Part shown: positions 5,961 through 44,540 of the stretch, piece after piece | Numbering within the stretch: the stretch's first letter is position 1 | Layout: each line of letters opens with the position of its first letter | Source of the DNA: Escherichia phage LL11 | Length of the DNA: 45,185 nt | Sequence record: NC_048064.1 | Reading direction: 5' to 3' (one strand) | Position numbers and translations under genes: made by a program | Notes under the pieces: model-generated | Told to the model about the DNA's origin: nothing | Databases searched by the model: none | The model's input: the letters and a program-made list of their open reading frames with translations, nothing else

Positions 5961-5983
5961 ATTTACCGGACACTATAGGATAA
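5961..5983 (+). promoter_or_regulatory. phage RNAP promoter (ATTTACCGGACACTATAGGATAA)
   Basis: Match to the window consensus ATTTACTGGACACTATAGAAGAG; first promoter downstream of the RNAP gene. Confidence 0.7.
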
Positions 5984-28272: not shown

Positions 28273-31215
28273 ATGGCAATTGAACGTCAAGCTGTACAAG
28301 GTTTAGAAAGAGTACAGTCAAGGGTCGCGCCAACACCTATGTCTTTCACACCACGACAAGTGAGTATCTCAGGGGGCGCTGATGCCTCCGGTAGTAGATT
28401 TTTGGAAGACTTAGTAAACGCCGCAAGTAGTGTGGCTGATGTCACTACTGCTATCCTTAATCAGCAAGTAGAAGACGATAAGGTTCGCCAGATGGATAGG
28501 GCTTTGTCTGGCATGATGCCTTCTGAGGATGCCACGGTAGGCGGTGCTCGTGCTCATATGCTGGTTAGTTTACAAAATGATGTAATCTCACAGACAACTG
28601 CGCTACAAGCAGAAGCACAGCGATTTCAAGGTAGTGACGAGGATTGGGAAAACTATGTAGTTCAATCTCGTAATGAGGTACAAAATAGGTTATGGCAAAG
28701 TTATCCAGAGCTTCGTGGTGACAAAGATTCTATGAGGCTTGTCACTAACGCGTTCATGGAGCAGCAACCTAGAATTACTGCAACTAGAGCAGAGGCTAAA
28801 CTTCGTCAAGAAGAAGAAGCACGAATGCAATCTATGCAGTCTCGTATTATCATGGCTACAAGGGACGTAGCGCCAGATGCCACTGGTGCAGCTCTTATCC
28901 AGCTACAAAAAGAAGCACTGGCGATGGGTCTTAGTAAACCTGAGTTTGATCAAATGGTTGCTAAGATTGCATCTGAAAGAGCGGCAGTAGGAGATGATAG
29001 TCTTATTCAGGGAACCAAGGCATTGGTGGATGATAAGGGTGTCTCTTTGTATGACCGTGTTGGTGCTTTGCAAACTGGAGAAATTCAAGCTAACAGAACT
29101 TGGGCTGCTCAGAATCAGGTTGCCCTCTTCGAGAAGAAAGATGCAGCTATAAAGGCATTCGATGCAGGGCAACTTACTCGCGAAGAGTTACTTCAGGTGA
29201 TGCAGAATCACAATGAATTGACTGGTGGCACTGCTTGGTCTGATAGCGAGATCAAGGCTATCTTCGATAGGCAAGCTAAGGTTAATGCAGAGAAAGCAAA
29301 GCTAGAAGATCTTATTGCACGAGGTGAATCTGGGTCACCTTTAGGCTTACAGGACATTAGTAAGGATGACAGAAAGACATATGCTGAAGCCTTAGTTAGT
29401 ACCTACACTAAGCTGGCAGAAGATGAAATTGCCCGTACTGGTGCAACGGGAGAACAGGCTGAAGCTATTCGCGGTAGGTATGAGCAGATGCGTTATCTTA
29501 AATTGGGTCAACAGCTTATTGAAGACCCGATCATTAAGGAAAGGTATTCGTCGCTTATGCAGCTATCCTCTGCCAACCTCAAGGATATGAATGTTGAACC
29601 TGAAGCACTGCAAACTATCATGCGAGCACGTGATTCTATTCCAGAGGATGCACGTCGTGCTGTTATGGGAGACAAAGAATATGCCTTTGTTGAGAACTAT
29701 GACTTAGCAACTCGCATGGGGTATAACACAGGTCAAGCTATTGAGTTTGCACAGAATGCCTCTCGCGGCGAGAAATTACAAGGTTCTGTGCTCAAAGAAC
29801 TTAATGATGATGTAGATGGAGTAGTTAGTGACATTGCAGGAGGCAGCTGGCTCACTTTTGGTGATAACATGAGTGAAATGGGACGTGACATTATGATGGA
29901 GGAGGCAAGTACAATTGCTAGAGCAATGAAGGTTGCAGGCCATAATAATGACACTATTAAGCGTCACCTTAAATCCTACCTTACAAGCCAGTATACACAA
30001 TTATCAGAAGGTTTCTTTACTCAAGGTGTTCTTGTAAAAGGAGACATTCGTACGTTAGGAGATACTATAGGAGTAAACCAAGGAGACGTCCCAATTACTC
30101 TCCGTCAGTACCTAGATAATAACAAACAAGCCCTGCTAGATGCATCAGGTGGGTTAGAGGAAGGCGACCTATATTTTGATGTAGATGCGAAGCGCGGCCT
30201 CTTTACTATACGTGCAGGCTCTGGTCGTGTGCCTGTTACACAGGCAATGCCTTTGTCTGAAATCAAAGGGCAATCCTTGCTTAAGCAACGGTATGATGCA
30301 GAGGTTAAAGCACGTGATGAAGGGCGTAAGAACTTTGAAGCACAACAAATGCGAATGTGGGGCGCAGGTGGCTACCAAGCACAACCACCTGCAAAGACTA
30401 CAGCCAAAACTGTAGGCTCACGTGGGATTGCTGACTTCTTAATGTCACCTGCCTTTGCATCAGGCGAGAATCTACCAGCAAACTTTGAGTTCGGATATAA
30501 GAGAAATAATATGGACTTCTACAATTATGTAGCCAAGATGGAGAATAATGCCAATGTAGGTTTTGACCGAGTAGCTGGTGTTTATACACCATACAAAGAT
30601 GCACATGGTCAGTCTGTAGGGTACGGTCACTTCCTTACTACTGAAGAGAAGAAGAACGGATACATTATGATTGGTACAGAGAAAGTGCCATTCACTCCGG
30701 GACAATCTCAATTAACACCAGAACGAGCCATGCGCCTTCTACAGCAAGACTTGAAGGGTCATGTGCCAAGTACTTCAGGATGGGCTGTTCCCTTCGAAGA
30801 GATGCACCCAGGTGTTCAGCGTGGCCTTATGGACTTGTCCTATAATTTAGGAAAAAGCGGGATCCAGAATGCTCCTAAGGCATACGCTGCATTTAAGGCT
30901 GGCAAGTTTACTGATGGCTTCATCGAGATGCTATCTACTGCATCTACTGAAGGCAAGCGCAGCACTGGATTGTTAGTTCGTAGGGCGGAAGCTTATAACC
31001 TTGCACAGAGTGGTGGTGCTATCCCTAAGATTAGTGAAGTGGAGACACGAGCAGATGGATCTATGTATGTGAAGTTTGCAGGACAGATGTCAGAGGCTTT
31101 CGTAAATAAATCAATCTACAATCAGATTGGTAAGGATGGGTGGATGCAAGTGTATCCTCCAAAGCAAGGTGCACTTGCACCTGACACTCAGATTGGTAGA
31201 ATCAAACTGAGCTAG
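28273..31215 (+). CDS. internal virion protein B with C-terminal lysozyme-like (muramidase) domain
   Basis: 980 aa; C-terminal region VGYGHFLTTEEKKNGY ... GLMDLSYNLG has the look of a GH24 lysozyme-type domain. Confidence 0.75.
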   Translation: MAIERQAVQGLERVQSRVAPTPMSFTPRQVSISGGADASGSRFLEDLVNAASSVADVTTAILNQQVEDDKVRQMDRALSGMMPSEDATVGGARAHMLVSLQNDVISQTTALQAEAQRFQGSDEDWENYVVQSRNEVQNRLWQSYPELRGDKDSMRLVTNAFMEQQPRITATRAEAKLRQEEEARMQSMQSRIIMATRDVAPDATGAALIQLQKEALAMGLSKPEFDQMVAKIASERAAVGDDSLIQGTKALVDDKGVSLYDRVGALQTGEIQANRTWAAQNQVALFEKKDAAIKAFDAGQLTREELLQVMQNHNELTGGTAWSDSEIKAIFDRQAKVNAEKAKLEDLIARGESGSPLGLQDISKDDRKTYAEALVSTYTKLAEDEIARTGATGEQAEAIRGRYEQMRYLKLGQQLIEDPIIKERYSSLMQLSSANLKDMNVEPEALQTIMRARDSIPEDARRAVMGDKEYAFVENYDLATRMGYNTGQAIEFAQNASRGEKLQGSVLKELNDDVDGVVSDIAGGSWLTFGDNMSEMGRDIMMEEASTIARAMKVAGHNNDTIKRHLKSYLTSQYTQLSEGFFTQGVLVKGDIRTLGDTIGVNQGDVPITLRQYLDNNKQALLDASGGLEEGDLYFDVDAKRGLFTIRAGSGRVPVTQAMPLSEIKGQSLLKQRYDAEVKARDEGRKNFEAQQMRMWGAGGYQAQPPAKTTAKTVGSRGIADFLMSPAFASGENLPANFEFGYKRNNMDFYNYVAKMENNANVGFDRVAGVYTPYKDAHGQSVGYGHFLTTEEKKNGYIMIGTEKVPFTPGQSQLTPERAMRLLQQDLKGHVPSTSGWAVPFEEMHPGVQRGLMDLSYNLGKSGIQNAPKAYAAFKAGKFTDGFIEMLSTASTEGKRSTGLLVRRAEAYNLAQSGGAIPKISEVETRADGSMYVKFAGQMSEAFVNKSIYNQIGKDGWMQVYPPKQGALAPDTQIGRIKLS

Positions 31216-31282: not shown

Positions 31283-34200
31283 ATGGTTGATAGTATTAAC
31301 CAAAATTGGGTGGCGGTGACTCAACGCAAGTTACCGCCTACCTTCTCTCAAGTTGCTGAAGCAGAGCGTAAGGCCGAAGTACAGAGAGCTAATGACAAAG
31401 TATTCCAAACAGCCATAGAGAGTGAGTGGGCTTTGTATGGTGGACAACGTGCCTATGAACGCCACACTACAGAGTTTGCTGAACAAGAAGGTTATGAAGT
31501 ACCTGAATCAACTAAGGATGAACTATCCAAGTTGTATGGGTATGAAATAGCGCAAGACATAGTCAAGAATGTGAAGTCTCCAGAAGAGTTGCAATTCCGT
31601 ATGTCTAATGCTGCTGCGGATAAAGACAGAGCAGACATCTTAGCACGTAATGGTTTCACAGGTTTCAGCGCACAGATTGCTGCTGGTATTCTTGACCCTG
31701 TAGGTTGGGCGGCTTCTCTAGTAGCTGCACCTGTAGCTGGTGCTGTCAAAGTAGGTCGTCTAGGTAGGATTATCAAGACGGCTGCCTTATCTGGTGCTGA
31801 AAATGCTGCATTAGAAGCTGTGCTTGCACAAGGTGATTACCAGCGAGGTGTCGATGATGTACTGGCTGCTGCCGGGTTTGGTATGATTATGGGCGGTACT
31901 ATTGGCGCTGCAACTAGGGAACGCATAGCCAGTGCTGGTTCTCGTACAGCGGCAGAGAGAGCAGAGGCTGTATTTGATGACTTGGACACCGTAGTAAAAG
32001 GTGCTGATGAGTTTGACTCGTCTGCTGCTCGTGCTGTACGTGAGGCCATGGAGTATGACGCGTATATGGCAGCACGTAATTATGAACCACTTCGTGCAAG
32101 AGAGGTGGATGCAGATATGGCAATTCTATCTCACACAGACAACTTGAAAGCCAATGCGTCGGTAAGGATGAGTGCTAGTGAGAAAGGACTACTGAAGAAA
32201 CAGATACGCCAACTGGAAGCAGAAGCAGCCACACTTAAGGGGAAGAAGATAGATGCTGTAGCAGAGGCTGCCGCCGCTAAGGGTGCACCTAAATCTGCTG
32301 CGGACAGATTGGATTTAGATGTTCAGAAGAAAGCACTGGCACGTAGATTCGATGAACCACTTGCTGATTTACAAGCGCGTCTTGATGAGTTGAATGCCAA
32401 GTTATCTCGTGCGAACAATGTAGGTAAGGCTAAGGAGGAGCTTAAGAGATTCTCATCGCTGTCCCGTGAAGATCAAATAAAGGAACTAGGTTTAGACGCA
32501 CCAATGCGTAAGGTGGAGATGACCCGTGCTGTACGAGATGCAGTAGCTGCAATCCGTGCCGAACGTAAGAAGACACCTACCGAGATACATGCTGAACAAG
32601 CTGCAGAAGAGGTAATCAAGCAAAAGGCAGATGACTCTATTGGTGCTAAACGTGTTGAAGGTTCAGAGATTGCAGGCGAGCAGTTTGACTTATCTAAAAA
32701 CATGGAAGAACTTATGGATGACTTGGCACGAGAAGCATATCAGTCAGAGGTGCGGCCTATTAATCTTAAGGGTCTAGGTTCAGTGTCTTCTGTGATTCTT
32801 AACTCAGAGAATCCTGTGTTCCGAGGTCTAGGTCTTCGTCTGCTTGAAAATGCTCAAGGTGGTGCATACCAAGGTAAGACAGCTGCTATCTTATCAGATG
32901 TGTATGGCAACCTTATTCGTCATGCAGAACGTAACAGGTACAATGATGGTTTCTCTCAATTCATCAAAGATAACAACCTACGTGCGGTAGATTATCTTAA
33001 CCCTGCAACGACACGGGATTTCAATAATCAGATTTATACAGCAATTGTTCGTGGCATACCAGAAGATACACCTCGTGGTGTTAAACTGGCAGCAGAAGGT
33101 ATCGCTGATAAACTCAAGAAAGCACTTGAGATTCGTAAGCAAGCAGGAGAGCATGGATTCGAAGATATACAATCTGCTAAGGATTACATCCCTGTTATCT
33201 ATGACGGTATCAAGGTTACTGAGGCAGTTAACAAATTGGGGAGTAGTGAGGCTGTTATTCACTTACTATCCAAAGGCTACCAGACAGGTAAGTACAAACT
33301 TGGCAAGAAAGCTGCGGATGCCCTAGCAAAAGTACAGTACATTCGTGCATCGGACTCCACCCTCTCTAGTCGTGTTGCATTCGATAGGGTGGTATCCCAG
33401 CAGCAGCAGGCTCAATTGATTGAGGATCTGAAGAAAGCAGGGGTACCAGACCATATCATTGATAATTTCATTGAAGGTACTGAATTAGCAGAAATGGCTG
33501 AATCGGTATCCAATCGAGCTAAAGCTAGTATGGGTATTAATACGCAAGCCGAATATGGCGGTTTGAAGGTGCAGGATTTGCTTAATACAAACGTAGGGGA
33601 GCTAGCGGAGAACTACGGCAAAGAGGCAGCGGGTGGTGCTGCATTGGCTGCTATGGGTTTCCCTACTCGCCAATCTGTGCTGAACGCAATAGATGCCGCA
33701 GAACGCGCAGGCCGCAATATGGCGGGGTCAAATGCTAAGGCAATCAAACAGCTTAGGTCTGAGGCAGAAATGCTCAGAGATGCCGTTAAGTTAATTTACG
33801 GCAACACTATTGACGCCGACCCTAACTCTGGAATTGTCAGGGGTACTCGACGTGTCCGTGAGATTACAGGGTTGTTACGATTAGGCCAAATGGGCTTCGC
33901 TCAGATACCTGAACTGGCACGTGCAATCTCTAAGATGGGACTAGGGACTGTGCTGAAGTCTGTACCTGCCACTAAGTTCTTACGTTCGAGAGCGGCTCGT
34001 AAAGGTGGCACTGCTCAGGGTGAGTTGCTTGAACCTGAACTGCGAGAAATGGAGGAACTCTTAGGTTATATCGGGGAAGATAACTGGCTCACAGGGTGGA
34101 ATGTCCGTCATGATGAGTTCGGAGAAACTGCGGATAACCTAGGTAAGCTGTCTGCTATTATTGATAACGGATTAGCTATGGGTAGTAGAATCAACACAAT

Positions 34201-35086
34201 ACTATCTGGTTTTAAAGCAGTACAAGGTGGCTCAGAGAAGATTATAGCTCGCTCTATCAATAAGCGACTAAAGCAACATTTGATGGGGGAGCGACAGTTA
34301 CCCAAAGCAGATCTTGAAGAAGTTGGCCTAAGTGAAGATGTCATGAAGAGACTTAAGCGTCACTTTGATGATAACCCAATGTACGCTGATTACAAAGGTG
34401 AAAAAGTTCGTATGATGAACTTTGATGCTATGGAGCCAGACCTGAGAGAGACAGTGGGTGTTGCTGTGCGAAGAATGTCAGGACGTCTTATTCAGCGTAA
34501 CTTCATAGGAGATGAAGGTATCTGGATGAATAAATGGTGGGGCAAGGCATTGACCCAGTTTAAGTCATTCTCTATTGTCTCTATTGAGAAACAGCTAATC
34601 CATGATTTACGAGGAGATAAGATTCAGGCTGCACAGATCCTTGCATGGTCTACCTTACTAGGCTATGTATCTTATGCACTACAGATGCAGATGCAAGCAA
34701 TTGGTAGGGAGGATAGAGACAAGTTCTTGAGGGATAAGTTCGAGACACAGAATATCGCTATGGGTGTCTTTAATAAACTCCCACAAGTTGCAGGCTTCGG
34801 TCTTGCTGGTGATGCTTTGGCAACATTTGGCCTAATGCCAGACTCTATGATGCAAGCGCCTGGACGTATGGGGTTCCGTCAGCAAGGGTTTGGTGATTTG
34901 GTAGCAGGTGCTGGTGTAATCAGTGATACAGTTAATTTGTCACAAGCACTAGTTAAGTATGCCAACGGAGATGATGATGTCTCTACTCGGCAGTTGGTGG
35001 ACAAGGTTCGTCGCCTTGTTCCTTTGGCAAATACTATTGGTGTAGGTCAGATGACTAAAGCCAGTGTAGACTTATTGGAGGATTGA
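31283..35086 (+). CDS. internal virion protein C (gp16-like, ejection protein)
   Basis: 1267 aa, largest gene, conserved position before the tail-fibre genes. Confidence 0.8.
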   Translation: MVDSINQNWVAVTQRKLPPTFSQVAEAERKAEVQRANDKVFQTAIESEWALYGGQRAYERHTTEFAEQEGYEVPESTKDELSKLYGYEIAQDIVKNVKSPEELQFRMSNAAADKDRADILARNGFTGFSAQIAAGILDPVGWAASLVAAPVAGAVKVGRLGRIIKTAALSGAENAALEAVLAQGDYQRGVDDVLAAAGFGMIMGGTIGAATRERIASAGSRTAAERAEAVFDDLDTVVKGADEFDSSAARAVREAMEYDAYMAARNYEPLRAREVDADMAILSHTDNLKANASVRMSASEKGLLKKQIRQLEAEAATLKGKKIDAVAEAAAAKGAPKSAADRLDLDVQKKALARRFDEPLADLQARLDELNAKLSRANNVGKAKEELKRFSSLSREDQIKELGLDAPMRKVEMTRAVRDAVAAIRAERKKTPTEIHAEQAAEEVIKQKADDSIGAKRVEGSEIAGEQFDLSKNMEELMDDLAREAYQSEVRPINLKGLGSVSSVILNSENPVFRGLGLRLLENAQGGAYQGKTAAILSDVYGNLIRHAERNRYNDGFSQFIKDNNLRAVDYLNPATTRDFNNQIYTAIVRGIPEDTPRGVKLAAEGIADKLKKALEIRKQAGEHGFEDIQSAKDYIPVIYDGIKVTEAVNKLGSSEAVIHLLSKGYQTGKYKLGKKAADALAKVQYIRASDSTLSSRVAFDRVVSQQQQAQLIEDLKKAGVPDHIIDNFIEGTELAEMAESVSNRAKASMGINTQAEYGGLKVQDLLNTNVGELAENYGKEAAGGAALAAMGFPTRQSVLNAIDAAERAGRNMAGSNAKAIKQLRSEAEMLRDAVKLIYGNTIDADPNSGIVRGTRRVREITGLLRLGQMGFAQIPELARAISKMGLGTVLKSVPATKFLRSRAARKGGTAQGELLEPELREMEELLGYIGEDNWLTGWNVRHDEFGETADNLGKLSAIIDNGLAMGSRINTILSGFKAVQGGSEKIIARSINKRLKQHLMGERQLPKADLEEVGLSEDVMKRLKRHFDDNPMYADYKGEKVRMMNFDAMEPDLRETVGVAVRRMSGRLIQRNFIGDEGIWMNKWWGKALTQFKSFSIVSIEKQLIHDLRGDKIQAAQILAWSTLLGYVSYALQMQMQAIGREDRDKFLRDKFETQNIAMGVFNKLPQVAGFGLAGDALATFGLMPDSMMQAPGRMGFRQQGFGDLVAGAGVISDTVNLSQALVKYANGDDDVSTRQLVDKVRRLVPLANTIGVGQMTKASVDLLED

Positions 35087-36045
35087 TGAGTTACACATTC
35101 ACTGAACATACAGCGAATGGCACTCAAACTACTTTCCCCTTCCGGTTCGCTGGGAGAGACAAGGGGTACTTGAGGGCTTCTGATATTTTAGTTGAAGTAA
35201 GAAATGATGGCGTGTGGAACACAGTAAGTGGTTGGACACTTACAGGTACTAACCAGATAACCTTTAATGTACCGCCAGCGGCAAATACAAAACTTCGTAT
35301 CAGGCGCGTTGTAGAGAAAGAAGAACCTTACGCCGAGTTTGACCGTGGTGTAACCTTGGATATGAAATCTCTCAATAACTCCTTTATACATCTTTTGGAA
35401 GTATCTCAGGAGCTACTGGATGGTTTCTATCCAGATGGTTACTTTGTAAAGCAAGAGGTATCTTGGGGTGGACATAAGATTACTGATTTGGCTGATGGCA
35501 CAAATCCGGGAGATGCAGTAAATAAAGGACAGCTTGATTCCATCGACAAGAAGCATACAGATTGGAACGCCAAACAGGACATTGAGATTGCTGGTCTTAA
35601 AGCTGGTATGACTTCTGGTATTGCGCACAGAACTGTTCCTTGGTACACGATAGCCCAAGGTGGTGAGATTTCCGTAAAGCCCCCTTATGAATTTCAAGAT
35701 GCACTAGTTTTCCTTAATGGGGTATTACAGCACCAAATTGTAGGCGCATACTCTATAAGCAACAACACTATCACTTTCGCAGAGCCGCTTGTGGCTGGTA
35801 CAGAGGTGTATGTGTTGGTAGGTAGTCGTGTTGCTACATCTGAACCTAATATTCAGTTAGAGTTGAATTTTGACTTAGTAGAAGGCCAACAAGTAGTAAA
35901 GATTGGCTCTGCATTTAAGTATATTGAGGTTTATCTTGATGGACTATTACAACCTAAACTTACTTATCGGGTAGATGGTGACACTGTTACTTTCTCAGAG
36001 GGAGTGCCAGAATGCCGGATGACTGCTAAGATTATCACAGAATAA
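35086..36045 (+). CDS. tail fibre / tailspike adaptor protein (gp17 N-terminal domain-like)
   Basis: 319 aa; ATG 35086 overlapping the gp16-like stop; N-terminal region typical of T7 gp17-like tail attachment domains; no enzymatic domain. Confidence 0.75.
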   Translation: MSYTFTEHTANGTQTTFPFRFAGRDKGYLRASDILVEVRNDGVWNTVSGWTLTGTNQITFNVPPAANTKLRIRRVVEKEEPYAEFDRGVTLDMKSLNNSFIHLLEVSQELLDGFYPDGYFVKQEVSWGGHKITDLADGTNPGDAVNKGQLDSIDKKHTDWNAKQDIEIAGLKAGMTSGIAHRTVPWYTIAQGGEISVKPPYEFQDALVFLNGVLQHQIVGAYSISNNTITFAEPLVAGTEVYVLVGSRVATSEPNIQLELNFDLVEGQQVVKIGSAFKYIEVYLDGLLQPKLTYRVDGDTVTFSEGVPECRMTAKIITE

Positions 36046-36054
36046 GGAGGTGGG

Positions 36055-36249
36055 ATGATTAACTCCGAACTGGTAGATAGTGGTGTGAAGCTTGCGCCAC
36101 CTGCACTCGTATCAGGTGGGTACTTCCTCGGTATCAGTTGGGATAATTGGGTGTTAATAGCAACATTCATTTATACCGTGTTGCAAATTGGGGACTGGTT
36201 TTATAATAAGTTCAAGATTTGGAGGGAGAAGCGTGAGCGTACACAATAA
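36055..36249 (+). CDS. holin (T7 gp17.5-like, class II)
   Basis: 64 aa; one transmembrane helix WVLIATFIYTVLQIG and a charged C-terminus; pattern parallels T7 gp17.5 from memory. Confidence 0.7.
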   Translation: MINSELVDSGVKLAPPALVSGGYFLGISWDNWVLIATFIYTVLQIGDWFYNKFKIWREKRERTQ

Positions 36250-36532
36250 ACATGCAGCTACAGAGGATGAGGTTGGCATTCTGCATGGTGCTATTACCAA
36301 AATCTTCAATAAGAAAGCACAGGCAATACTGGACACTATAGAAGAAGACCCTGATGCAGCATTACATTTAGTGTCTGGTAAGGATATTGGTGCGATGTGT
36401 AAGTGGGTTCTTGATAACGGCATTACCGCCACACCTGCTGCACAGCAGGAAGAGTCCAAGTTATCTAAGCGCCTCAAGGCTATCAGAGAGGCATCCAGTG
36501 GTAAGATAATTCAATTCACTAAGGAGGGTTGA
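36233..36532 (+). CDS. terminase small subunit (gp18-like)
   Basis: GTG 36233 preceded by GGAGGGAG; about 99 aa; immediately upstream of the large terminase gene; no ATG available near the 5' end. Confidence 0.6.
   Translation: MSVHNKHAATEDEVGILHGAITKIFNKKAQAILDTIEEDPDAALHLVSGKDIGAMCKWVLDNGITATPAAQQEESKLSKRLKAIREASSGKIIQFTKEG
36324..36346 (+). promoter_or_regulatory. phage RNAP promoter inside the small terminase gene
   Basis: CAATACTGGACACTATAGAAGAA; positions -13 to +6 match consensus. Confidence 0.5.
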
Positions 36533-38430
36533 TGGCTAAGGCAAGAGAATCACAAGCAGAGGCTCTTGCCAGATGGGAGATGCTACAGGAGTTACAGCAG
36601 ACCTTTCCGTACACATCGGAAGGTTTGCTTCTCTTTGCAGACACAGTTATTCATAACTTGATTGCAGGCAACCCTCATCTGATTCGTATGCAGGCTGATA
36701 TCTTGAAGTTCCTATTCTACGGACACAAGTACCGCCTCATCGAAGCGCCTCGTGGTATCGCTAAGACAACACTATCAGCAATCTATACGGTATTCCGTAT
36801 TATTCATGAACCGCATAAGCGTATCATGGTTGTGTCCCAAAACGCCAAGCGAGCAGAGGAAATCGCAGGTTGGGTAGTTAAAATCTTCCGTGGCTTAGAC
36901 TTTCTTGAGTTTATGCTGCCGGATATCTACGCTGGGGACCGTGCATCCGTTAAGGCGTTTGAGATTCATTACACCCTACGTGGTAGTGATAAGTCTCCTT
37001 CTGTATCCTGTTACTCAATCGAAGCAGGTATGCAGGGTGCTCGTGCTGATATTATTCTAGCGGATGACGTAGAGTCGATGCAGAATGCTCGTACGGCAGC
37101 GGGCCGTGCCTTGCTTGAGGAACTGACTAAGGAGTTTGAATCTATCAACCAGTTTGGGGATATCATTTACCTTGGTACACCTCAGAACGTAAACTCTATC
37201 TACAACAACCTACCTGCTCGTGGTTACTCTGTTCGTATCTGGACTGCGCGTTACCCTTCAGTAGAGCAAGAGCAATGTTATGGCGACTTCCTTGCACCTA
37301 TGATTGTTCAAGATATGAAGGACAACCCAGCACTTCGCTCAGGGTACGGGTTGGATGGTAATAGTGGTGCACCTTGTGCCCCTGAAATGTATGATGATGA
37401 AGTCCTGATTGAGAAGGAAATCTCTCAGGGTGCTGCTAAGTTCCAGCTTCAGTTCATGCTTAACACTCGCATGATGGATGCTGACAGATACCCATTACGC
37501 CTGAACAATCTAATCTTCACCTCGTTTGGTACAGAGGAAGTCCCTGTGATGCCTACGTGGAGTAATGATTCCATAAACATCATTGGTGATGCACCTAAGT
37601 ATGGTAACAAGCCTACGGATTTCATGTACAGACCTGTAGCTCGCCCATACGAATGGGGTGCTGTCTCCCGCAAGATTATGTATATCGACCCTGCGGGTGG
37701 TGGTAAGAACGGAGATGAGACGGGTGTAGCCATCGTATTCCTGCACGGCACATTCATTTATGTGTATAAGTGCTTTGGTGTACCTGGCGGATACCGAGAG
37801 TCGTCCCTGAATCGCATTGTGCAGGCCGCAAAGCAGGCTGGTGTTAAAGAGGTATTCATTGAGAAGAACTTTGGTCATGGCGCGTTTGAGGCGGTAATTA
37901 AGCCGTACTTTGAACGAGAGTGGCCTGTAACTCTGGAAGAGGATTACGCCACCGGACAGAAAGAGTTGCGTATCATTGAGACGCTGGAGCCGCTCATGGC
38001 AGCCCATAGGCTTATCTTCAATGCAGAGATGGTGAAGTCAGACTTTGAGTCGGTACAGCACTATCCGCTTGAACTACGCATGTCCTACAGTCTTTTCAAT
38101 CAAATGTCGAACATAACGATTGAGAAGAACAGCCTCCGGCACGATGACCGCCTAGACGCCCTGTATGGCGCTATACGGCAATTAACTTCTCAGATAGACT
38201 ATGACGAGGTTACTCGAATTAATCGCCTCAGAGCGCAGGAGATGCGTGATTATATACAGGCGATGAATACACCTAGGCTTCGTCGGGCCATGCTGTACGG
38301 TGATTATGGTGATGAGCGAAGAACAACTAACACCTCTCTAGCGATGCAGCAGAGGGTTTACGGGCAGGACTACCGAAATAAATCGGCAAGCAGAAATACA
38401 CTTTCTGCAAGGATTTCAAGGACTTATTAA
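36532..38430 (+). CDS. terminase large subunit (gp19-like)
   Basis: 632 aa; ATPase N-terminal domain with Walker A-like APRGIAKT and nuclease C-terminal domain; AAGGAGG RBS. Confidence 0.93.
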   Translation: MAKARESQAEALARWEMLQELQQTFPYTSEGLLLFADTVIHNLIAGNPHLIRMQADILKFLFYGHKYRLIEAPRGIAKTTLSAIYTVFRIIHEPHKRIMVVSQNAKRAEEIAGWVVKIFRGLDFLEFMLPDIYAGDRASVKAFEIHYTLRGSDKSPSVSCYSIEAGMQGARADIILADDVESMQNARTAAGRALLEELTKEFESINQFGDIIYLGTPQNVNSIYNNLPARGYSVRIWTARYPSVEQEQCYGDFLAPMIVQDMKDNPALRSGYGLDGNSGAPCAPEMYDDEVLIEKEISQGAAKFQLQFMLNTRMMDADRYPLRLNNLIFTSFGTEEVPVMPTWSNDSINIIGDAPKYGNKPTDFMYRPVARPYEWGAVSRKIMYIDPAGGGKNGDETGVAIVFLHGTFIYVYKCFGVPGGYRESSLNRIVQAAKQAGVKEVFIEKNFGHGAFEAVIKPYFEREWPVTLEEDYATGQKELRIIETLEPLMAAHRLIFNAEMVKSDFESVQHYPLELRMSYSLFNQMSNITIEKNSLRHDDRLDALYGAIRQLTSQIDYDEVTRINRLRAQEMRDYIQAMNTPRLRRAMLYGDYGDERRTTNTSLAMQQRVYGQDYRNKSASRNTLSARISRTY

Positions 38431-38451
38431 TTACTGGACACTATAGAAGGA
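38429..38451 (+). promoter_or_regulatory. phage RNAP promoter overlapping the terminase stop
   Basis: AATTACTGGACACTATAGAAGGA. Confidence 0.75.
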
Positions 38452-38523
38452 AGGCCCAGATAATAAGAGAAAATAATAGGTAATATATAGGTTAACCTAG
38501 GTTATATAGGTATGCCTTAGTAT

Positions 38524-38543
38524 GGGTGTACTCCTGTACACCC
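38524..38543 (+). other. perfect hairpin GGGTGTAC-TCCT-GTACACCC in late leader
   Basis: 8-bp perfect stem with 4-nt loop, downstream of an AT-rich stretch that shares AGGTTATATAGGT with the origin-like region at 6042-6054. Confidence 0.4.
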
Positions 38544-38587
38544 TATTCCTTACTTCCTTACTATATTTACATAATAGGAGAGAGACA

Positions 38588-38866
38588 ATGGCTAATGATT
38601 ATAGTAGTCAACCATTAACAGGTAAGTCTAAGAGAAAGCAGGTACAACCTGTAAGTGAAGAACTAATGCTTCCGGTAATCCCAAAAGAGGAAGCTAGTAA
38701 GAAAATCAATGTTATTAATGATGCCACCAAATCAGGTAAACAGAAAGGGGCCATGGTGTGCCTTGAAGTGGAAGGTGGTGTATTGAAGATTGCTATCGCG
38801 GTTGATGGCAAAGAAGATTCAGAGTGGAAGTTAGTAACAGTGGAAACCCCTGTTACCCCAGTTTAA
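38588..38866 (+). CDS. hypothetical late protein, paralog A (92 aa)
   Basis: ATG 38588 with AGGAGAGAG RBS; shares the block SGKQKGAMV-LE and a C-terminal ...VTP... with the next ORF. Confidence 0.55.
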   Translation: MANDYSSQPLTGKSKRKQVQPVSEELMLPVIPKEEASKKINVINDATKSGKQKGAMVCLEVEGGVLKIAIAVDGKEDSEWKLVTVETPVTPV

Positions 38867-38883
38867 GAGAAGGAGGAGATTAC

Positions 38884-39171
38884 ATGGCTAAATATGGTGA
38901 AGGTTCTGTTACTGGTCAGGCTTTTCGAGTAAAAGCAGTACAAACTATTGCAACGGCAATCCCGATGCCTGTTGTTAAAGAAGCAGACCTTAAGAGAAAA
39001 GATCACCCTATCAACATCAAACACCTGTCAGGTAAGCAGAAAGGTGCAATGGTTGCTCTTGAGAAAGATGACACAACCATGCATATTGCTGTTGCACGTG
39101 GCAGTGAACCCACAGACTCATGGGATGTAACTGGTATGGAAGAGGCCGCTGTTACTCCAGCAGGGGAATAA
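38884..39171 (+). CDS. hypothetical late protein, paralog B (95 aa)
   Basis: ATG 38884 with AAGGAGGAG RBS; tandem paralog of 38588-38866. Confidence 0.55.
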   Translation: MAKYGEGSVTGQAFRVKAVQTIATAIPMPVVKEADLKRKDHPINIKHLSGKQKGAMVALEKDDTTMHIAVARGSEPTDSWDVTGMEEAAVTPAGE

Positions 39172-39173
39172 TA

Positions 39174-39518
39174 ATGCTTAATAAATACTTCAAGCGTAAA
39201 GAGTTTGCTTGCCGTTGTGGGTGCGGTACATCTACTGTTGATGCTGAATTACTACAGGTAGTCACAGATGTGCGTGAGCACTTTGGTTCTCCTGTAGTTA
39301 TCACATCGGGACATCGCTGTATTAAGCACAATGCCAATGTAGGTGGAGCTAAGAACTCCATGCATCTTACTGGTAAGGCTGCTGACATTAAAGTGTCTGG
39401 CATATTACCTTCTGAAGTGCATAAGTATCTTACTAGCAAATACCAAGGCAAGTATGGTATCGGTAAGTATAACTCCTTCACTCACATCGATGTACGGGAT
39501 GGTTGTGCGCGATGGTAA
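39174..39518 (+). CDS. peptidase M15-type zinc peptidase (putative endolysin)
   Basis: 114 aa; SGHRC...N, GGAKNSMHLTGKAADI and HID blocks match the zinc ligands of M15/VanY-like cell-wall peptidases; N-terminal CxCGCG motif. Confidence 0.75.
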   Translation: MLNKYFKRKEFACRCGCGTSTVDAELLQVVTDVREHFGSPVVITSGHRCIKHNANVGGAKNSMHLTGKAADIKVSGILPSEVHKYLTSKYQGKYGIGKYNSFTHIDVRDGCARW

Positions 39519-39626
39519 GATGTGTTGAATGATGTGAGCGTATGGTTGCCCAAGCTGCCGAGGATGGCAACTATGATGACTGGAAGAACTACTCTGACTT
39601 GTTAGCTCAATGGAAAGGGAGATGCA

Positions 39627-39776
39627 ATGAAAAAGCTGTTTAAGTCTAAGAAGGTTGTAGGTGCACTGGTTGCACTTGTTATTGCTCTTGTTTCTGTAGG
39701 TCTTGGTGTAGACCTTGGCTCTGGCACGGAATCCTCTGTGACAGATGTGGTCTGCCAAGTGATCACCTGTGAATAA
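39627..39776 (+). CDS. small membrane protein (49 aa), possible lysis accessory
   Basis: MKKLFKSKKVVGALVALVIALVSVGLGV... with one transmembrane helix; between endolysin and spanins. Confidence 0.4.
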   Translation: MKKLFKSKKVVGALVALVIALVSVGLGVDLGSGTESSVTDVVCQVITCE

Positions 39777-39990
39777 GTTTCTAGAAGTTCTGGCAGGTCT
39801 TATTGGCCTGCTTGTCTCTGCTAAGAAGAAACAAGAAGAGAAGGAGGCACAAAGTGAAGCGAATCATGTTAGTGACAACCCTTCTGATTGGTTCGCTGAC
39901 CACTTCCGGGTGTCAGCAGGCGTTACCAGAGAAAGCAATGGTGAAACCTCTGAGGCCGACGCTGACGGAAGTTTACGAGGTAGACGATAA
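39769..39990 (+). CDS. putative i-spanin (Rz-like)
   Basis: N-terminal transmembrane helix FLEVLAGLIGLLV followed by a charged periplasmic region; contains the start of an overlapping lipoprotein ORF in the +1 frame. Confidence 0.5.
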   Translation: MNKFLEVLAGLIGLLVSAKKKQEEKEAQSEANHVSDNPSDWFADHFRVSAGVTRESNGETSEADADGSLRGRR

Positions 39991-40063
39991 GGTCTGCTTT
40001 AGTAATCCTGACGCTACAAAACTTGGTTTGTACATTCTCTCGCTAGAACGCGGATACAATTAA
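39854..40063 (+). CDS. putative o-spanin (Rz1-like lipoprotein), overlapping the i-spanin
   Basis: GTG 39854 6 nt after AGGAGG; signal-like KRIMLVTTLLIGSLTTSG followed by Cys (lipobox-like); extends beyond the i-spanin stop. Confidence 0.5.
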   Translation: MKRIMLVTTLLIGSLTTSGCQQALPEKAMVKPLRPTLTEVYEVDDKVCFSNPDATKLGLYILSLERGYN

Positions 40064-40092
40064 TACATAGCTTTATGTATCAGTGTCTTATG

Positions 40093-40115
40093 ATTTACTG
40101 GACACTATAGAAGAG
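40093..40115 (+). promoter_or_regulatory. phage RNAP promoter for the tailspike genes (exact consensus)
   Basis: ATTTACTGGACACTATAGAAGAG followed by leader hairpin GCGCCGTTC-TTTT-GAGCGGC. Confidence 0.8.
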
Positions 40116-40194
40116 GTAAGATAGCGCCGTTCTTTTGAGCGGCCTATTACTAGCCAATCTTCATAGGGAGGGTTGGAAAGTAATAGGAGATAGC

Positions 40195-42093
40195 ATGGCT
40201 AAATTAACCAAACCTAATACTGAAGGAATCTTGCATAAAGGACAATCTTTGTATGAGTACCTTGATGCGAGAGTTTTAACATCAAAGCCGTTTGGTGCTG
40301 TAGGTGACGCCACTACTGATGATACTGTGGTTATAGCTGATTCATTAAACTCTCAGAAAGCTGTCACAGTCTCAGACGGTGTATTCTCTAGCTCTGGTAT
40401 TAATAGTAATTACTGTAACTTAGACGGCAGGGGTAGTGGCGTGCTAAGTCACCGTTCAAGTACAGGTAACTACTTAGTATTTAACAATCTACGTGCAGGT
40501 CGCTTAAGTAATATTACGGTAGAAAGTAATAAGGCGACTGATACAACTCAGGGACAGCAGGTCTCCCTTGCTGGTGGAAGTGATGTTACTGTAAGTGACG
40601 TTAACTTCTCAAACGTTAAAGGTACTGGTTTCAGTTTAATCGCATACCCTAATGATGCGCCACCGGATGGACTTATGATTAAAGGCATTCGAGGTAGCTA
40701 TTCCGGCTATGCTACTAATAAGGCAGCCGGATGCGTACTTGCTGACTCCTCAGTTAACTCCCTCATAGATAACGTCATTGCTAAGAACTACCCTCAGTTC
40801 GGAGCAGTAGAGTTGAAAGGTACAGCCAGTTACAACATAGTCAGTAATGTTATAGGGGCAGATTGCCAGCATGTAACTTACAACGGCACTGTAGGGTCAA
40901 TAGCTCCCTCTAATAACCTTATCAATGGGGTAGTGGCTAATAATCCTAAGTATGCAGCGGTTGTTGCAGGCAAAGGTAGTACGAACTTAATCTCAGACGT
41001 GCTCGTAGATTACTCAACTTCTGATGCGAGGCAGGCTCATGGTGTTACCGTAGAAGGGTCTGATAACGTCATAAATAATGTGCTTATGTCAGGGTGTGAT
41101 GGTACTAACTCTTTAGGACAAGGGCAGACTGCTATAATTGCACGCTTTATAGGTACAGCTAATAACAACTATGCGTCTGTATTTCCTAGCTACAGTGCTA
41201 CAGGTGTTATTACTTTCGAATCCGGCTCTACCCGTAACTTCGTAGAGGTAAAGCACCCGGGCAGGAGAAACGACCTTCTCAGCTCTGCTAGTACTATTGA
41301 CGGTGCAGCTACTATTGACGGCACTAATAATAGTAACGTAGTGCACGCACCTGCATTAGGGCAGTACATAGGTAGTATGTCAGGTAGGTTCGAATGGCGG
41401 ATTAAGTCCATGTCACTGCCTTCAGGCGTTCTTACTTCTGCTGATAAGTACAGAATGCTTGGGGATGGTGCTGTGTCATTAGCTGTAGGTGGAGGCACTT
41501 CTTCTCAAGTTCGCCTATTTACTTCTGATGGTACTTCTCGGACAGTGTCCCTCACCAACGGTAACGTGCGTCTTTCTACCAGTAGCACAGGCTATTTGCA
41601 GTTAGGTGCTGATGCAATGACCCCAGATAGTACTGGTACATACGCCTTAGGTTCCGCCAGTCGAGCATGGTCTGGCGGTTTTACTCAAGCAGCATTCACT
41701 GTTACCTCAGATGCTCGGTGTAAAACAGAACCTCTTACTATCTCAGATGCCTTACTGGATGCTTGGTCTGAAGTTGACTTTGTGCAGTTTCAGTATTTGG
41801 ATCGTGTTGAGGAGAAGGGTGCAGACTCAGCTAGATGGCACTTCGGTATCATCGCCCAGCGAGCTAAGGAGGCCTTCGAACGTCACGGTATAGATGCACA
41901 TCGCTATGGCTTCTTGTGCTTCGACAGTTGGGATGATGTATACGAGGAAGATGCCAATGGCTCTCGTAAACTGATTACACCAGCAGGTTCCCGCTACGGT
42001 ATTCGTTACGAGGAAGCACTGATATTAGAGGCTGCGTTGATGCGGCGGACTGTTAAGCGTATGCAGGAAGCACTAGCTTCCATGCCTAAGTAA
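40195..42093 (+). CDS. tailspike 1: beta-helix depolymerase with C-terminal intramolecular chaperone (peptidase S74-type) domain
   Basis: 632 aa from ATG 40195 (AGGAGA RBS); Ser/Thr/Gly/Asn-rich repetitive beta-helix middle; C-terminus SDARCK ... ARWHFGIIAQRAKEAFERHGIDAHRYGFLCFDSWDD matches the autoproteolytic chaperone module of endosialidase/K5-lyase-type tailspikes. Confidence 0.85.
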   Translation: MAKLTKPNTEGILHKGQSLYEYLDARVLTSKPFGAVGDATTDDTVVIADSLNSQKAVTVSDGVFSSSGINSNYCNLDGRGSGVLSHRSSTGNYLVFNNLRAGRLSNITVESNKATDTTQGQQVSLAGGSDVTVSDVNFSNVKGTGFSLIAYPNDAPPDGLMIKGIRGSYSGYATNKAAGCVLADSSVNSLIDNVIAKNYPQFGAVELKGTASYNIVSNVIGADCQHVTYNGTVGSIAPSNNLINGVVANNPKYAAVVAGKGSTNLISDVLVDYSTSDARQAHGVTVEGSDNVINNVLMSGCDGTNSLGQGQTAIIARFIGTANNNYASVFPSYSATGVITFESGSTRNFVEVKHPGRRNDLLSSASTIDGAATIDGTNNSNVVHAPALGQYIGSMSGRFEWRIKSMSLPSGVLTSADKYRMLGDGAVSLAVGGGTSSQVRLFTSDGTSRTVSLTNGNVRLSTSSTGYLQLGADAMTPDSTGTYALGSASRAWSGGFTQAAFTVTSDARCKTEPLTISDALLDAWSEVDFVQFQYLDRVEEKGADSARWHFGIIAQRAKEAFERHGIDAHRYGFLCFDSWDDVYEEDANGSRKLITPAGSRYGIRYEEALILEAALMRRTVKRMQEALASMPK

Positions 42094-44078: not shown

Positions 44079-44540
44079 GTGGAAATTTGGAGGCCTATTG
44101 CTGGTATACCAGATTACATGGTTTCCTCCTTTGGTCGTGTTAGATCTCATAAAAGAGGTAAGGTTACTATACTAAACCCTCCGCACGACAAAGGAGGTTA
44201 TCGTAATGTTGTGCTACGTGCTAATGGTGAAAAGATAAATCGCAAGGTACATAGGCTTGTGGCAGAGGCTTTCTTACCTAATCCTCGCGGTCTACCTCAA
44301 GTAAATCACAAGGATGAAGTAAGAGACAATAATCATGTAAGTAATCTGGAGTGGTGTGATTGTGCATACAACGTAGATTACTCTCAAGCAGCTACTTATA
44401 TTGTGATGTGCCCTAAAGGTAATATATTAGTAGTAAGGAATGTGGCTAAGTTTTGTAGGGAAAACGGATTAAGCAGTGGTTCTTTTACAGATATGCTTAA
44501 GGGAAGACGTAAGCAACATAAGGGTTATCGCTTAGTGTAA
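44079..44540 (+). CDS. HNH homing endonuclease (paralog 3 of 3)
   Basis: GTG 44079 5 nt after AGGAGG; MEIWRPIAGIPDYMVSSFGRVRS, HRLVAEAF, NHKD...NNH..NLEW, C-terminal QHKGY; last gene before the terminal region. Confidence 0.8.
   Translation: MEIWRPIAGIPDYMVSSFGRVRSHKRGKVTILNPPHDKGGYRNVVLRANGEKINRKVHRLVAEAFLPNPRGLPQVNHKDEVRDNNHVSNLEWCDCAYNVDYSQAATYIVMCPKGNILVVRNVAKFCRENGLSSGSFTDMLKGRRKQHKGYRLV

Follow-up and report, generated by a model that had tools for sequence, protein, structure and literature searches.

A probable split, K1-5-like lysis gene set and a virion-borne GH24 domain in Escherichia phage LL11

The window analysed here, a stretch of 45,185 nucleotides from Escherichia phage LL11 (NC_048064.1), contains a lysis region (36000-40200) that shares 97.6% nucleotide identity over 4.2 kb, as well as its gene order, with coliphage K1-5, and the phage is by sequence a K1-5-like Vectrevirus (Autographiviridae, Molineuxvirinae). 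All open reading frames (ORFs) named in an initial annotation of this DNA were recovered at the same or closely similar coordinates on the + strand, on which all features described below are located. Gene content and order are those of K1-5 (NC_008152; EPKV1_gp41-gp48), K1E, and SP6 (genes 39-48). The set shared with K1-5 comprises a holin, the small (TerS) and large (TerL) terminase subunits, two small paralogues, an M15 endolysin, a 49-aa protein, and a lipoprotein, for which the K1-5 RefSeq record uses the names holin, terminases, endolysin, 'holin', and Rz-like spanin. The lysis gene set is not new: it is already covered by annotations or publications on K1-5, K1E, and SP6, and is found in the K1-5 RefSeq record and in literature cited since 2004.

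The 5' part of the region starts with a tail-fibre-like adaptor gene (35083..36045; PF03906 Phage_T7_tail N-terminal domain, E 8.3e-12), which takes the position of T7 gene 17 and has a K1-5 homologue annotated as 'tail fiber protein'. It is followed by a gene for a 64-aa holin of the T7 gp17.5 family (36055..36249; PF10746, E 1.5e-27), which also matches phrog_920 'holin' (E 5.8e-28) and, by tblastn, T7 gp17.5 itself (E 4e-6). This protein has a single clear hydrophobic helix (approximately residues 31-49) and a basic C-terminal tail with 6 K/R among the 15 residues after the helix, and its gene is preceded by a strong Shine-Dalgarno sequence, AAGGAGG. The TerS gene (36233..36532; PF11123, E 3.3e-16, and the K1-5 annotation) starts with GTG and overlaps the final 17 nt of the holin gene, and the TerL gene (36529..38430; PF22530 T7 terminase RNaseH-like domain, E 1.7e-35) comes next. 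The domain match, the tblastn result, and the gene order bear out the originally proposed T7-like placement of the holin between adaptor and TerS; in T7 the homologous holin is encoded in the same place, between the tail-fibre gene and TerS.

Directly 3' of the TerL stop codon lies a K1-5/SP6-type phage promoter-like site (38430..38449; ATTACTGGACACTATAGAAG), with 1 mismatch to a repeated 20-mer that has 10 matches in the window versus 0 in 100 shuffles. A perfect copy of the 20-mer (40094..40113) marks the end of the lysis cluster, ahead of the tailspike gene. Between the 38430 site and the endolysin gene, two paralogous small genes are encountered (38588-38866 and 38884-39171; phrog_2725, E 4.6e-38 and 5.4e-43), which have no Pfam or NCBIfam match, and for which no support was found here for the database label 'acetyl-CoA acetyltransferase'.

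The endolysin gene (39174..39518) lies 3' of the terminase genes, as had been claimed, and encodes a 114-aa single-domain zinc peptidase of MEROPS family M15A (Peptidase_M15_3; PF08291, E 6.3e-34) that matches phrog_894 'endolysin' (E 3.5e-45); its ORF is open from 39120, and the start matching that of K1-5 is the ATG at 39174. The protein could be aligned to 1LBU at the zinc site, and its own zinc motif is intact, including SxHxxGxAxD at residues 62-71 (H64, D71) and FTHID at 102-106. No signal or SAR sequence was detected (the best 19-residue hydropathy is just 0.71, and the N-terminus is not hydrophobic), and the enzyme must therefore depend on the holin. The initial annotation had proposed a small M15/VanY-like zinc peptidase in place of a T7-type amidase; PF08291, the 1LBU alignment, and hydropathy agree with a soluble M15A peptidase, and a search of the window for a T7-type amidase (gp3.5) found none. 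The closest known enzymes are LysPM1 and, grouped with it, the M15A endolysins of phages ST79 and Spp001. LysPM1, the 116-aa Peptidase_M15_3 endolysin of the Proteus podophage Homer, lyses permeabilised cells and is inactivated by EDTA, its activity being partly restored by Zn2+ or Ca2+ (PMC13461873). LysPM1 and the endolysin described here both consist of a single domain of about 115 aa with 1LBU as closest solved structure, and their zinc triads (SxHxxGxAxD ... H), likened on the basis of motif and length, are H63/D70/H104 in LysPM1 and H64/D71/H104 here.

Downstream of the endolysin gene, alignment of homologues revealed a 33-aa remnant of a conserved small soluble ORF (39542..39643) with coding-like codon periodicity (0.69/0.45/0.97). 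Its homologues comprise 43 aa in K1-5 and AAPEc6 and, as annotated, about 45 aa in KMB14 (MVRCVEWCERMVA...); relative to K1-5 and AAPEc6, the ORF in the window is cut by a TGG to TGA change at 39530-39532. The small membrane protein that had been noticed after the endolysin is a 49-aa inner-membrane protein (39627..39776; phrog_4712), a candidate i-spanin with the same sequence as K1-5 gp44, which Kongari 2018 lists as 'SIS' for K1-5. Its N-terminus contains 5 Lys and is followed by a hydrophobic helix of 19 residues, for which the hydropathy over this length is 2.76 and the charges on the two flanks are 5+/0 and 0/2-; the acidic tail of 21 residues after the helix terminates in a C-x4-C that is conserved in the homologue alignment. 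A strong N-in helix, and with that a class II membrane protein, is predicted from these features. The GTG start of a 73-aa ORF (39769..39990; phrog_9219) overlaps the stop codon of the 49-aa gene (TGTGAATAA), and its 3' part is overlapped in the +1 frame by the gene for the 69-aa precursor of an outer-membrane lipoprotein (39854..40063; phrog_8971 'Rz-like spanin', E 4.3e-37). The likely start of the latter is the GTG at 39854 (AAGGAGG-N6-GTG). This predicted o-spanin has the lipobox TSG|C with Cys20 and a non-Asp residue, Gln, at +2, and a mature form of 50 aa with one additional conserved Cys; it is the sole credible lipoprotein ORF found on the + strand of the window, and its name in UniRef is 'O-spanin'. 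With their overlapping stop and start codons and internal Shine-Dalgarno sequence, the 49-aa, 73-aa, and lipoprotein genes form one tight unit, which is co-inherited across Vectrevirus, Zindervirus, Acadevirus, Gajwadongvirus, and one Pantoea phage, whatever the endolysin type. For example, the trio recurs with a different, lysozyme-type endolysin in PP99, ECBP5, JSF38, and Nufs112.

The Rz/Rz1-like overlapping pair of the initial annotation stood in part: the lipoprotein makes a good o-spanin candidate, and the 73-aa ORF with which its gene overlaps is real, while assignment of the latter as i-spanin was not established. As partner of the o-spanin we tentatively prefer, at slightly below an even chance, the 49-aa class II protein with its C-terminal C-x4-C, which would make an unusually short 'separated' spanin. 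The strong N-in helix and the conserved C-terminus with two Cys argue for this protein, which according to Kongari 2018 is the i-spanin of K1-5, K1E, and SP6, and the annotations of the SP6 and Premi records likewise name its homologue i-spanin. In phD2B and POP72, where another tiny lipoprotein takes the o-spanin place, the C-terminus of the 49-aa homologue is changed and both Cys are lost. Against this assignment, only about 21 residues of the protein would be periplasmic, 71 together with the lipoprotein, which lies close to the lower limit of the 62-300 residue range of combined periplasmic lengths of two-component spanins, and the curators flagged it 'too small?' (Kongari 2018). Moreover, RefSeq and PHROGs label the protein 'holin', and an intact homologue occurs in 3 Klebsiella phage isolates of a single lineage, from which the 73-aa gene and any lipoprotein ORF are absent.

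That the 73-aa protein is instead the i-spanin, forming with the lipoprotein an overlapped Rz/Rz1-type spanin and leaving the 49-aa protein as a second holin, antiholin, or other endolysin-tied lysis factor, appears somewhat unlikely. Its ORF is a real gene, and the +1 overlap is typical of Rz/Rz1; beyond its hydrophobic segment the protein has about 55 hydrophilic and strongly charged residues, giving with the lipoprotein a more comfortable length of about 105 periplasmic residues. The AF2 model draws a single helix over residues 3-29 (followed by a helix at 38-45 and a disordered tail), and the hydropathy of 1.25 over 19 residues is near that of the T7 i-spanin gp18.5 (1.35). The UAB_Phi78 homologue was scored as an overlapped i-spanin in the same paper of Kongari 2018 that lists the K1-5/K1E/SP6 family as 'separated', the KBNP1315 paper takes the homologue as Rz, a label also used in the KBNP1315 and Nufs112 annotations, and the 49-aa gene persists without this o-spanin in HY-type Klebsiella phages, phD2B, and POP72. 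However, the uncharged run that would serve as anchor spans only 6-13 residues across homologues (12 here, 6 in PP99 and ECBP5), and with its KKK flank there are 4 K/R right after the run versus 1 before, which predicts a cytoplasmic body. Furthermore, Cys is absent, the C-terminal third, which contacts the o-spanin in known spanins, shows the lowest conservation and in several lineages is shortened by 12 residues, and there is no similarity to gp18.5 (hhalign probability 0.2%). Joint loss of the 73-aa and lipoprotein genes is uninformative because they overlap physically.

It is also unlikely that the partner question has some other answer, such as a trio acting jointly or a 73-aa lysis regulator facing the cytoplasm. 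In its specific form, with joint action of all three proteins or with the 73-aa protein as a membrane-associated, cytoplasm-facing regulator of holin or spanin, and thereby accessory to the periplasm-spanning bridge and not a subunit of it, this explanation is rather unlikely. The translational linkage and co-inheritance of the three genes across genera irrespective of endolysin type, as well as the predicted cytoplasmic body, are consistent with it, and the conservation of the motif P-x-[DE]-W-[FY]-x-x-H-F exceeds what the overlap alone would bring about, which keeps the overlapping signal peptide unusually constant. The explanation is, however, purely inferential and had no precedent in any library; phrog_9219 has no assigned function, and the 73-aa protein has no Pfam or NCBIfam match. 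Finally, a mere chance frame over the lipoprotein gene, to which the absence of the ORF from the K1-5 RefSeq annotation (the ORF itself is present in K1-5) and of an own Shine-Dalgarno sequence before its GTG would point, is effectively refuted and highly improbable, since the 5' third outside the lipoprotein gene displays coding periodicity in its own frame (codon-position entropy 0.58/0.22/0.93), the frame is open in all 25 distinct sequences from 8 lineages while just 1-30% of synonymous o-spanin recodings per lineage would be expected to keep it open, P38, W41, H45, and F46 are invariant across genera, and gene callers predict the ORF in many assemblies. Codon periodicity and the persistence of the open frame beyond expectation identify the 73-aa ORF as a true, conserved gene.

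A second predicted wall hydrolase is encoded outside the lysis region. The lysozyme-like domain that had been proposed within internal virion protein B was recovered in a large, 980-aa internal virion protein (28273-31215) as a GH24 (T4-lysozyme-like) domain at residues 771-906 (30583..30990; PF00959, E 1.1e-7, score 32.6 bits versus a gathering cut-off of 22.3), with matches to phrog_31077 and phrog_7 'endolysin' (E 1.4e-9 and 2e-7). Among the matches listed in a fold search, nearly all were GH24 lysozymes or fusion constructs containing T4 lysozyme; the best had probabilities of 0.97-1.0, but E 5e-3 and TM of about 0.5, and the catalytic Glu was left unaligned where the model is of low confidence. 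The phage thus encodes two different wall hydrolases, GH24 in the virion for entry and M15 for exit, as originally proposed. The phiKMV gp36 protein, an internal virion protein whose lysozyme domain is C-terminal, is comparable to the 980-aa protein. SP6 gp36, too, is large and ejected and carries a lysozyme-like domain close to its C-terminus, a similarity reported in 2004 according to a citation in PMC4837284. In contrast to both gp36 proteins, the domain in the 980-aa protein is internal to the final 240 residues, with a beta-rich tail of about 70 residues after it.

Taken together, the lysis set is probably K1-5-like and split across two late transcription units, the holin being expressed with the packaging genes and the endolysin cluster from its own promoter-like site at 38430. 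At entry, the GH24 domain would be ejected with the DNA on the 980-aa protein and open the wall. Judged from its family, the holin would be made together with the packaging proteins, accumulate in the inner membrane, and at trigger time open holes big enough for a 13-kDa protein. The endolysin, expressed from the promoter after TerL, would escape via these holes and cut peptide links in the peptidoglycan, as expected from its family assignment; lytic activity is known from the probable Proteus-phage homologue. The mature 50-aa lipoprotein and its inner-membrane partner would then breach the outer membrane.

This logic of holin, soluble wall hydrolase, and lipoprotein-based outer-membrane step, with a virion-borne hydrolase at entry, is shared with T7. 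The components differ: T7 uses the gp3.5 amidase versus an M15A peptidase encoded after TerL here, and the spanin genes are not located between TerS and TerL and have no similarity to the embedded gp18.5/gp18.7 spanins of T7. At entry, the GH24 domain on the protein at the gp15 position would stand in for the transglycosylase domain of T7 gp16, the transglycosylase end being absent from the gp16-like protein here. The spanin classes of Kongari 2018 are exemplified by lambda Rz/Rz1 (embedded), P2 LysB/LysC (overlapped), and T4 PseT.3/PseT.2 (separated). Like catalogued spanins, the candidates combine a lipoprotein bearing a periplasmic Cys with one or more small inner-membrane proteins whose genes directly follow that of the endolysin; no coiled coil was predicted in the candidates. 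In the Gajwadongvirus-type phages KBNP1315, ECBP5, and PP99, the T7-type holin is also apart from the endolysin, which is followed by the same trio of 49-aa, approximately 69-aa, and lipoprotein genes. Whereas the M15 enzyme has no export signal, the endolysin of KBNP1315 is a Sec-exported (SAR) lysozyme that lyses cells without holin. Besides the nonsense codon in the small ORF after the endolysin, LL11 differs from K1-5 in its second tailspike, which comprises 570 aa versus 811 aa in K1-5, and in the presence of extra HNH endonuclease genes.

Across the whole of 36000-40200, the sequence shares 97.6% identity with Escherichia phage K1-5 (Vectrevirus, Molineuxvirinae, Autographiviridae), and 116 phage records match it. 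The K1-5 RefSeq record lists in the matching stretch a tail fiber protein, a holin, the small and large terminase, two 'acetyl-CoA acetyltransferase' genes, an endolysin, a 'holin', an Rz-like spanin, and a tail spike. On the basis of this identity and annotation, the gene set is a catalogued one, belonging to a well-known phage group. Documentation and RefSeq annotation for K1-5, K1E, and SP6 already cover the gene set, its split layout, the M15 endolysin, and the lysozyme domain of the virion protein; nothing is new in kind, and the useful residue is an annotation conflict over the small membrane proteins. As a discovery this is of little importance, and its practical value lies in annotation: phages of the K1-5 type serve in phage therapy and in studies of capsule depolymerases, and knowledge of which of their genes control lysis is therefore of use in engineering.

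Every ORF of the initial annotation was found on the + strand. The K1-5/SP6-type promoter 20-mer TTTACTGGACACTATAGAAG has 10 matches on the + strand with 0-3 mismatches (at 5962, 8696, 13326, 13789, 14935, 18118, 23075, 36325, 38430, and 40094), as compared to 0 in 100 shuffles, and these sites look like the promoter set of the phage RNA polymerase. The copy at 38430 (1 mismatch) begins on the last base of the stop codon of the large terminase gene (+ strand, end 38430), and the copy at 40094 is perfect and immediately precedes the tailspike gene. The endolysin cluster (38588-40063) therefore looks like a late transcription unit of its own, apart from the unit of the holin, and the 'split' layout proposed initially is a fair description of a cluster bounded by promoter-like sites with the holin in another unit. 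The copy at 36325 lies within the small terminase gene, just 3' of the holin gene. Approximately 75 nt 3' of the 38430 promoter, a perfect 8-bp GC-rich hairpin (GGGTGTAC TCCT GTACACCC, 38524-38543) without a T-run was encountered, which may serve in processing or stabilising the RNA and not as a terminator. No terminal repeats were found in the window.

The predicted holin (64 aa, 36055-36249, + strand) matches PF10746 (Phage_holin_2_2) over the whole model (95.5 bits, cut-off 25.4, E 1.5e-27) as well as phrog_920, and T7 gp17.5 finds its ORF directly by tblastn (E 4e-6). Its size, a hydrophobic helix at approximately residues 31-49, and a basic C-terminal tail with six K/R among the last 15 residues fit the T7 holin family of 60-70 aa membrane proteins. 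Upstream lies a gene with a T7 tail-fibre N-terminal domain and downstream the ORF overlaps the GTG start of the small terminase gene at 36233, which is the order of genes 17, 17.5, and 18 in T7. Thus, the domain, family, and gp17.5 matches together with the gene order bear out the prediction of a T7-type holin between the adaptor and small terminase genes. On the presumed opening of timed lesions in the inner membrane, the only data from a related system concern ORF46 of KBNP1315, which caused moderate growth inhibition.

The small M15 zinc peptidase that had been put forward as the endolysin is likewise a sound prediction. The 114-aa product, which starts at ATG 39174 on the + strand as in K1-5, matches PF08291 (Peptidase_M15_3) over its full length (116.8 bits, cut-off 23.2, E 6.3e-34) and contains the zinc motif SMHLTGKAAD at 62-71 (SxHxxGxAxD) and FTHID at 102-106, the former aligning to NSRHMYGHAAD of the zinc site of 1LBU, the D-Ala-D-Ala carboxypeptidase of Streptomyces albus. 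The protein has no signal peptide or SAR helix (best 19-residue hydropathy 0.71; N-terminal 30 residues 0.73), and because a hydrophobic N-terminus is lacking it should remain in the cytoplasm until released by the holin. The M15 assignment of SP6 gp46 has been published (PMC4837284), and LysPM1, a 116-aa Peptidase_M15_3 endolysin of the Proteus podophage Homer, is lytic and metal-dependent; peptidoglycan degradation among M15A endolysins is described only for LysPM1 and two others (PMC13461873). The accompanying claim that a T7-type amidase is absent agrees with the searches: tblastn of T7 gp3.5 against the six frames of the window gave nothing credible, no amidase domain turned up when 26 proteins or fragments from the window, among them 10 ORFs whose function is unknown or uncertain, were scanned with Pfam, and none is annotated in K1-5. 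The sole weak gp3.5 match, 26 residues at 17388-17465 on the minus strand (E 0.002), is antisense within a phosphoesterase gene and has no PHROG match, and was rejected.

A lysozyme-like domain had also been assigned to an internal virion protein (980 aa, 28273-31215), and profile and fold matches agree with this assignment. The protein matches phrog_4290 ('lysozyme domain-containing protein') with local matches to two endolysin PHROGs, and its C-terminal 241 residues match PF00959 (Phage_lysozyme; 32.6 bits, cut-off 22.3, E 1.1e-7), a domain that a scan of the entire 980-aa protein at E 0.01 had not listed; a PDB sequence search with the full protein gave no matches. An AlphaFold model of the 241-aa fragment (mean pLDDT 71) was searched against the PDB with Foldseek, and the matches listed are nearly all GH24 lysozymes or T4-lysozyme fusions (R21, FAHEc1, DLP12, T4L), with best probabilities of 0.97-1.0 but an E of only 5e-3 and a TM of 0.45-0.5. 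The modelled domain is thus predicted to have a T4-lysozyme-like fold. The Asp equivalent to D20 of T4L is present (YKD, residue 776); the region of the Glu (T4L E11) falls outside the aligned part, in the low-confidence N-terminus of the model, and the Glu was not placed, residue 757 being a candidate. Together with the M15 endolysin, this domain would bring the predicted hydrolases to two. The likeness of SP6 gp36 to lysozymes has been published previously (PMC4837284). The gp16-like internal virion protein (31283-35086) has 1267 aa, as compared to 1061 aa in K1-5, and its match to phrog_342 begins only at profile position 206, so that the N-terminal transglycosylase part found in T7 gp16 is absent. 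In some relatives the gp16-like protein is still annotated as 'peptidoglycan lytic exotransglycosylase'.

The initial annotation further proposed an overlapping Rz/Rz1 pair, of which the lipobox lipoprotein and a genuine overlapping gene were recovered, but the Rz role of the upstream 73-aa product is unproven and its C-terminus is not conserved. Besides the o-spanin candidate, the coding strand of the window has no credible lipoprotein ORF. The likely start of the candidate is GTG 39854 (39854-40063) behind AAGGAGG (at approximately 39841-39847), and it encodes a 69-aa precursor with the lipobox LTTSG|C (Cys20, Gln at +2; the same in 5 divergent homologues); the mature part has 50 aa, of which residue 29 is a conserved Cys (phrog_8971, E 4.3e-37). 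Its gene begins 85 nt into the 73-aa ORF (39769-39990), in the +1 frame and with an overlap of 137 nt, and the GTG start of the 73-aa ORF in turn overlaps the stop codon of the preceding gene for a 49-aa membrane protein (TGTGAATAA). A codon test of this GTG start did not discriminate: the terminal Cys codon of the 49-aa gene is TGT in 25 of 25 sequences, but its other Cys codon (TGC) is just as invariant. The 73-aa ORF is unannotated in the K1-5 RefSeq record and has a PHROGs entry, phrog_9219, for which no function is given.

On comparison of 25 distinct related sequences with 67-99% identity, the 73-aa ORF is a genuine gene. Upstream of the lipoprotein gene, entropy at codon positions 1, 2, and 3 amounts to 0.58, 0.22, and 0.93, which is a coding pattern, and in the overlap all three positions show reduced variation. 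When synonymous codons were shuffled in each lineage with the lipoprotein sequence fixed, the 73-aa frame stayed open in 1-5% of the shuffles in five lineages and in 9-30% in three, while the actual frame is open in 8 of 8. Moreover, residues P38, W41, H45, and F46 are the same in all the phages compared, from those of Escherichia to those of Pantoea, and the overlapping lipoprotein signal peptide is unusually constant. When large databases were searched with the o-spanin and with the 73-aa protein, all matches were close relatives on phage contigs of approximately 44 kb, and no name more informative than 'O-spanin' was among them.

Public records disagree about the two small proteins that precede the lipoprotein: the 49-aa protein is labelled i-spanin, holin, or hypothetical, and the 73-aa protein Rz, hypothetical, or not at all. 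Kongari et al. (2018), in their spanin census, class K1-5, K1E, and SP6 as 'separated' and give the 49-aa protein the i-spanin role, and the notes of the census on this pair read 'too small?' and name the place behind the endolysin as the only support; for their 49-aa homologues, the records of SP6 and of Proteus phage Premi have adopted the same assignment. The same census lists UAB_Phi78 as 'overlapped', with i-spanin coordinates that correspond to the 73-aa homologue, which is also designated Rz in the KBNP1315 paper and in the Nufs112 record. RefSeq and PHROGs name the 49-aa protein a holin.

That the 49-aa protein (39627-39776) is the partner of the lipoprotein, as a 'separated' pair, is the reading that we tentatively favour. 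The protein has five N-terminal Lys, a hydrophobic helix of 19 uncharged residues (hydropathy 2.76) with no Lys after it, and a 21-residue tail that ends in a conserved C-x4-C; the firmly predicted helix would place the N-terminus inside and the C-terminus outside. In addition, phages phD2B and POP72, which are without the K1-5-type lipoprotein, have a 49-aa homologue with a changed, Cys-free C-terminus. Against this reading stand the periplasmic part of only 21 residues, which gives a combined length of 71 with the lipoprotein, within but near the bottom of the reported range of 62-300, and three isolates of Klebsiella phages in which an intact, diverged 49-aa homologue occurs although the 73-aa gene and any lipoprotein ORF are absent. 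If the 49-aa protein and the lipoprotein do function together as a spanin, few known spanins would be as short, and the pair would be useful as a minimal model for membrane fusion.

Pairing of the lipoprotein with the 73-aa protein is less likely in our estimation. In its favour, the two genes overlap in the classic manner, the combined length would be more comfortable, and a charged helix is modelled behind the hydrophobic segment. Against it, the uncharged run comprises only 12 residues here and 6-13 in homologues, the KKK that directly follows it favours a C-in orientation, the protein has no Cys, and its last 25 residues vary most and are absent from the 61-aa forms. A conserved C-terminal region that would bind the o-spanin was thus not found among the homologues, and the low-confidence AF2 model (pLDDT 60), which consists of one helix, another short one, and a tail, shows this part as disordered. 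On the other hand, hydropathy is close to that of T7 gp18.5. There is no similarity to gp18.5 in sequence. Homology of the downstream genes to T7 gp18.5/18.7 was rejected, as tblastn gave nothing and hhalign of an 11-sequence alignment of the 73-aa protein against gp18.5 gave a probability of 0.2%; the lipobox codons in the other frame dictate the only aligned piece, HFRV versus RLRV. An arrangement of three parts, or a regulatory one, is slightly less likely still. The genes for the 49-aa protein, the 73-aa protein, and the lipoprotein are kept together in PP99, ECBP5, JSF38, and Nufs112, and therefore behave as one module; these phages have a lysozyme-type endolysin, of a kind for which Sec export has been demonstrated in their relative KBNP1315.

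Further, phrog_9219 can be read as a dual-coded gene with the conserved motif P-x-[DE]-W-[FY]-x-x-H-F over the o-spanin signal peptide, encoding the true i-spanin or an unrecognised lysis factor, a proposal that we consider possible but doubtful. If it is true, the 'separated spanin' annotation of K1-5, K1E, and SP6 would be wrong or incomplete, and outer-membrane disruption would involve a three-gene module.

The 'o-spanin' CDS of one curated SP6 record (AY288927.2, gene 48; 4126-4323 of the compared locus, record 39607-39804) is in the frame of the 73-aa homologue; the true SP6 lipoprotein ORF occupies locus 4139-4399, with the o-spanin tblastn match at record 39671-39877, and the gene 48 label appears to be on the wrong reading frame. 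Tuodvirus and Axomammavirus relatives have no K1-5-type o-spanin and no 73-aa gene. Genes for a 38-aa lipoprotein (mature part approximately 21 aa) are located directly upstream of the M15 endolysin in phD2B (locus 1385-1501), POP72 (1370-1486), and one further relative (L028, 2373-2489), with the Cys-free version of the 49-aa protein downstream; these two products are far too short to span the periplasm. In Klebsiella phage HY (L051/L052, 1963-2260), OY978837.1, and OP413828.1, the 49-aa gene is directly followed by the tailspike promoter. The three Klebsiella isolates lack the 73-aa gene and, over the entire coding strand, any gene for a lipoprotein, and appear to be natural variants without a recognisable o-spanin.

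Four small ORFs follow the endolysin. The product of the first is soluble with a C-x2-W-C motif, and comprises 43 aa in K1-5 and AAPEc6, where it reads MVRCVEWCERMVA..., and approximately 45 aa as annotated in KMB14. In the window (39512-39643), TGG has changed to TGA at 39530-39532 (codon 7), which leaves a 33-aa ORF from an internal ATG. A role as a lysis accessory is possible, since members of this family also adjoin the endolysin in ECBP5 and Nufs112, which is an unrelated one. Upstream of the endolysin, two paralogues of approximately 92-95 aa (38588-38866 and 38884-39171) share the motif SGKQKGAMV and belong to phrog_2725. Their 'acetyl-CoA acetyltransferase' label found no Pfam or NCBIfam support and looks like a propagated mis-annotation; NCBIfam gave nothing over any cut-off for nine window proteins. 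Klebsiella relatives carry a third, longer paralogue that is annotated as 'Hoc-like head decoration protein'.

Outside the lysis region, three ORFs for HNH/NUMOD4-type homing endonucleases (6325-6762, 10030-10509, and 44079-44540) may explain part of the extra length relative to K1-5 (45185 versus 44385 bp), because no endonuclease is named where they would correspond in the RefSeq record of K1-5. Finally, the first tailspike gene (40135-42093) encodes a C-terminal Peptidase_S74 chaperone domain, and the second (42179-43891) a 570-aa beta-helix protein in place of the 811-aa second tailspike of K1-5; host capsule specificity is probably different from that of K1-5.
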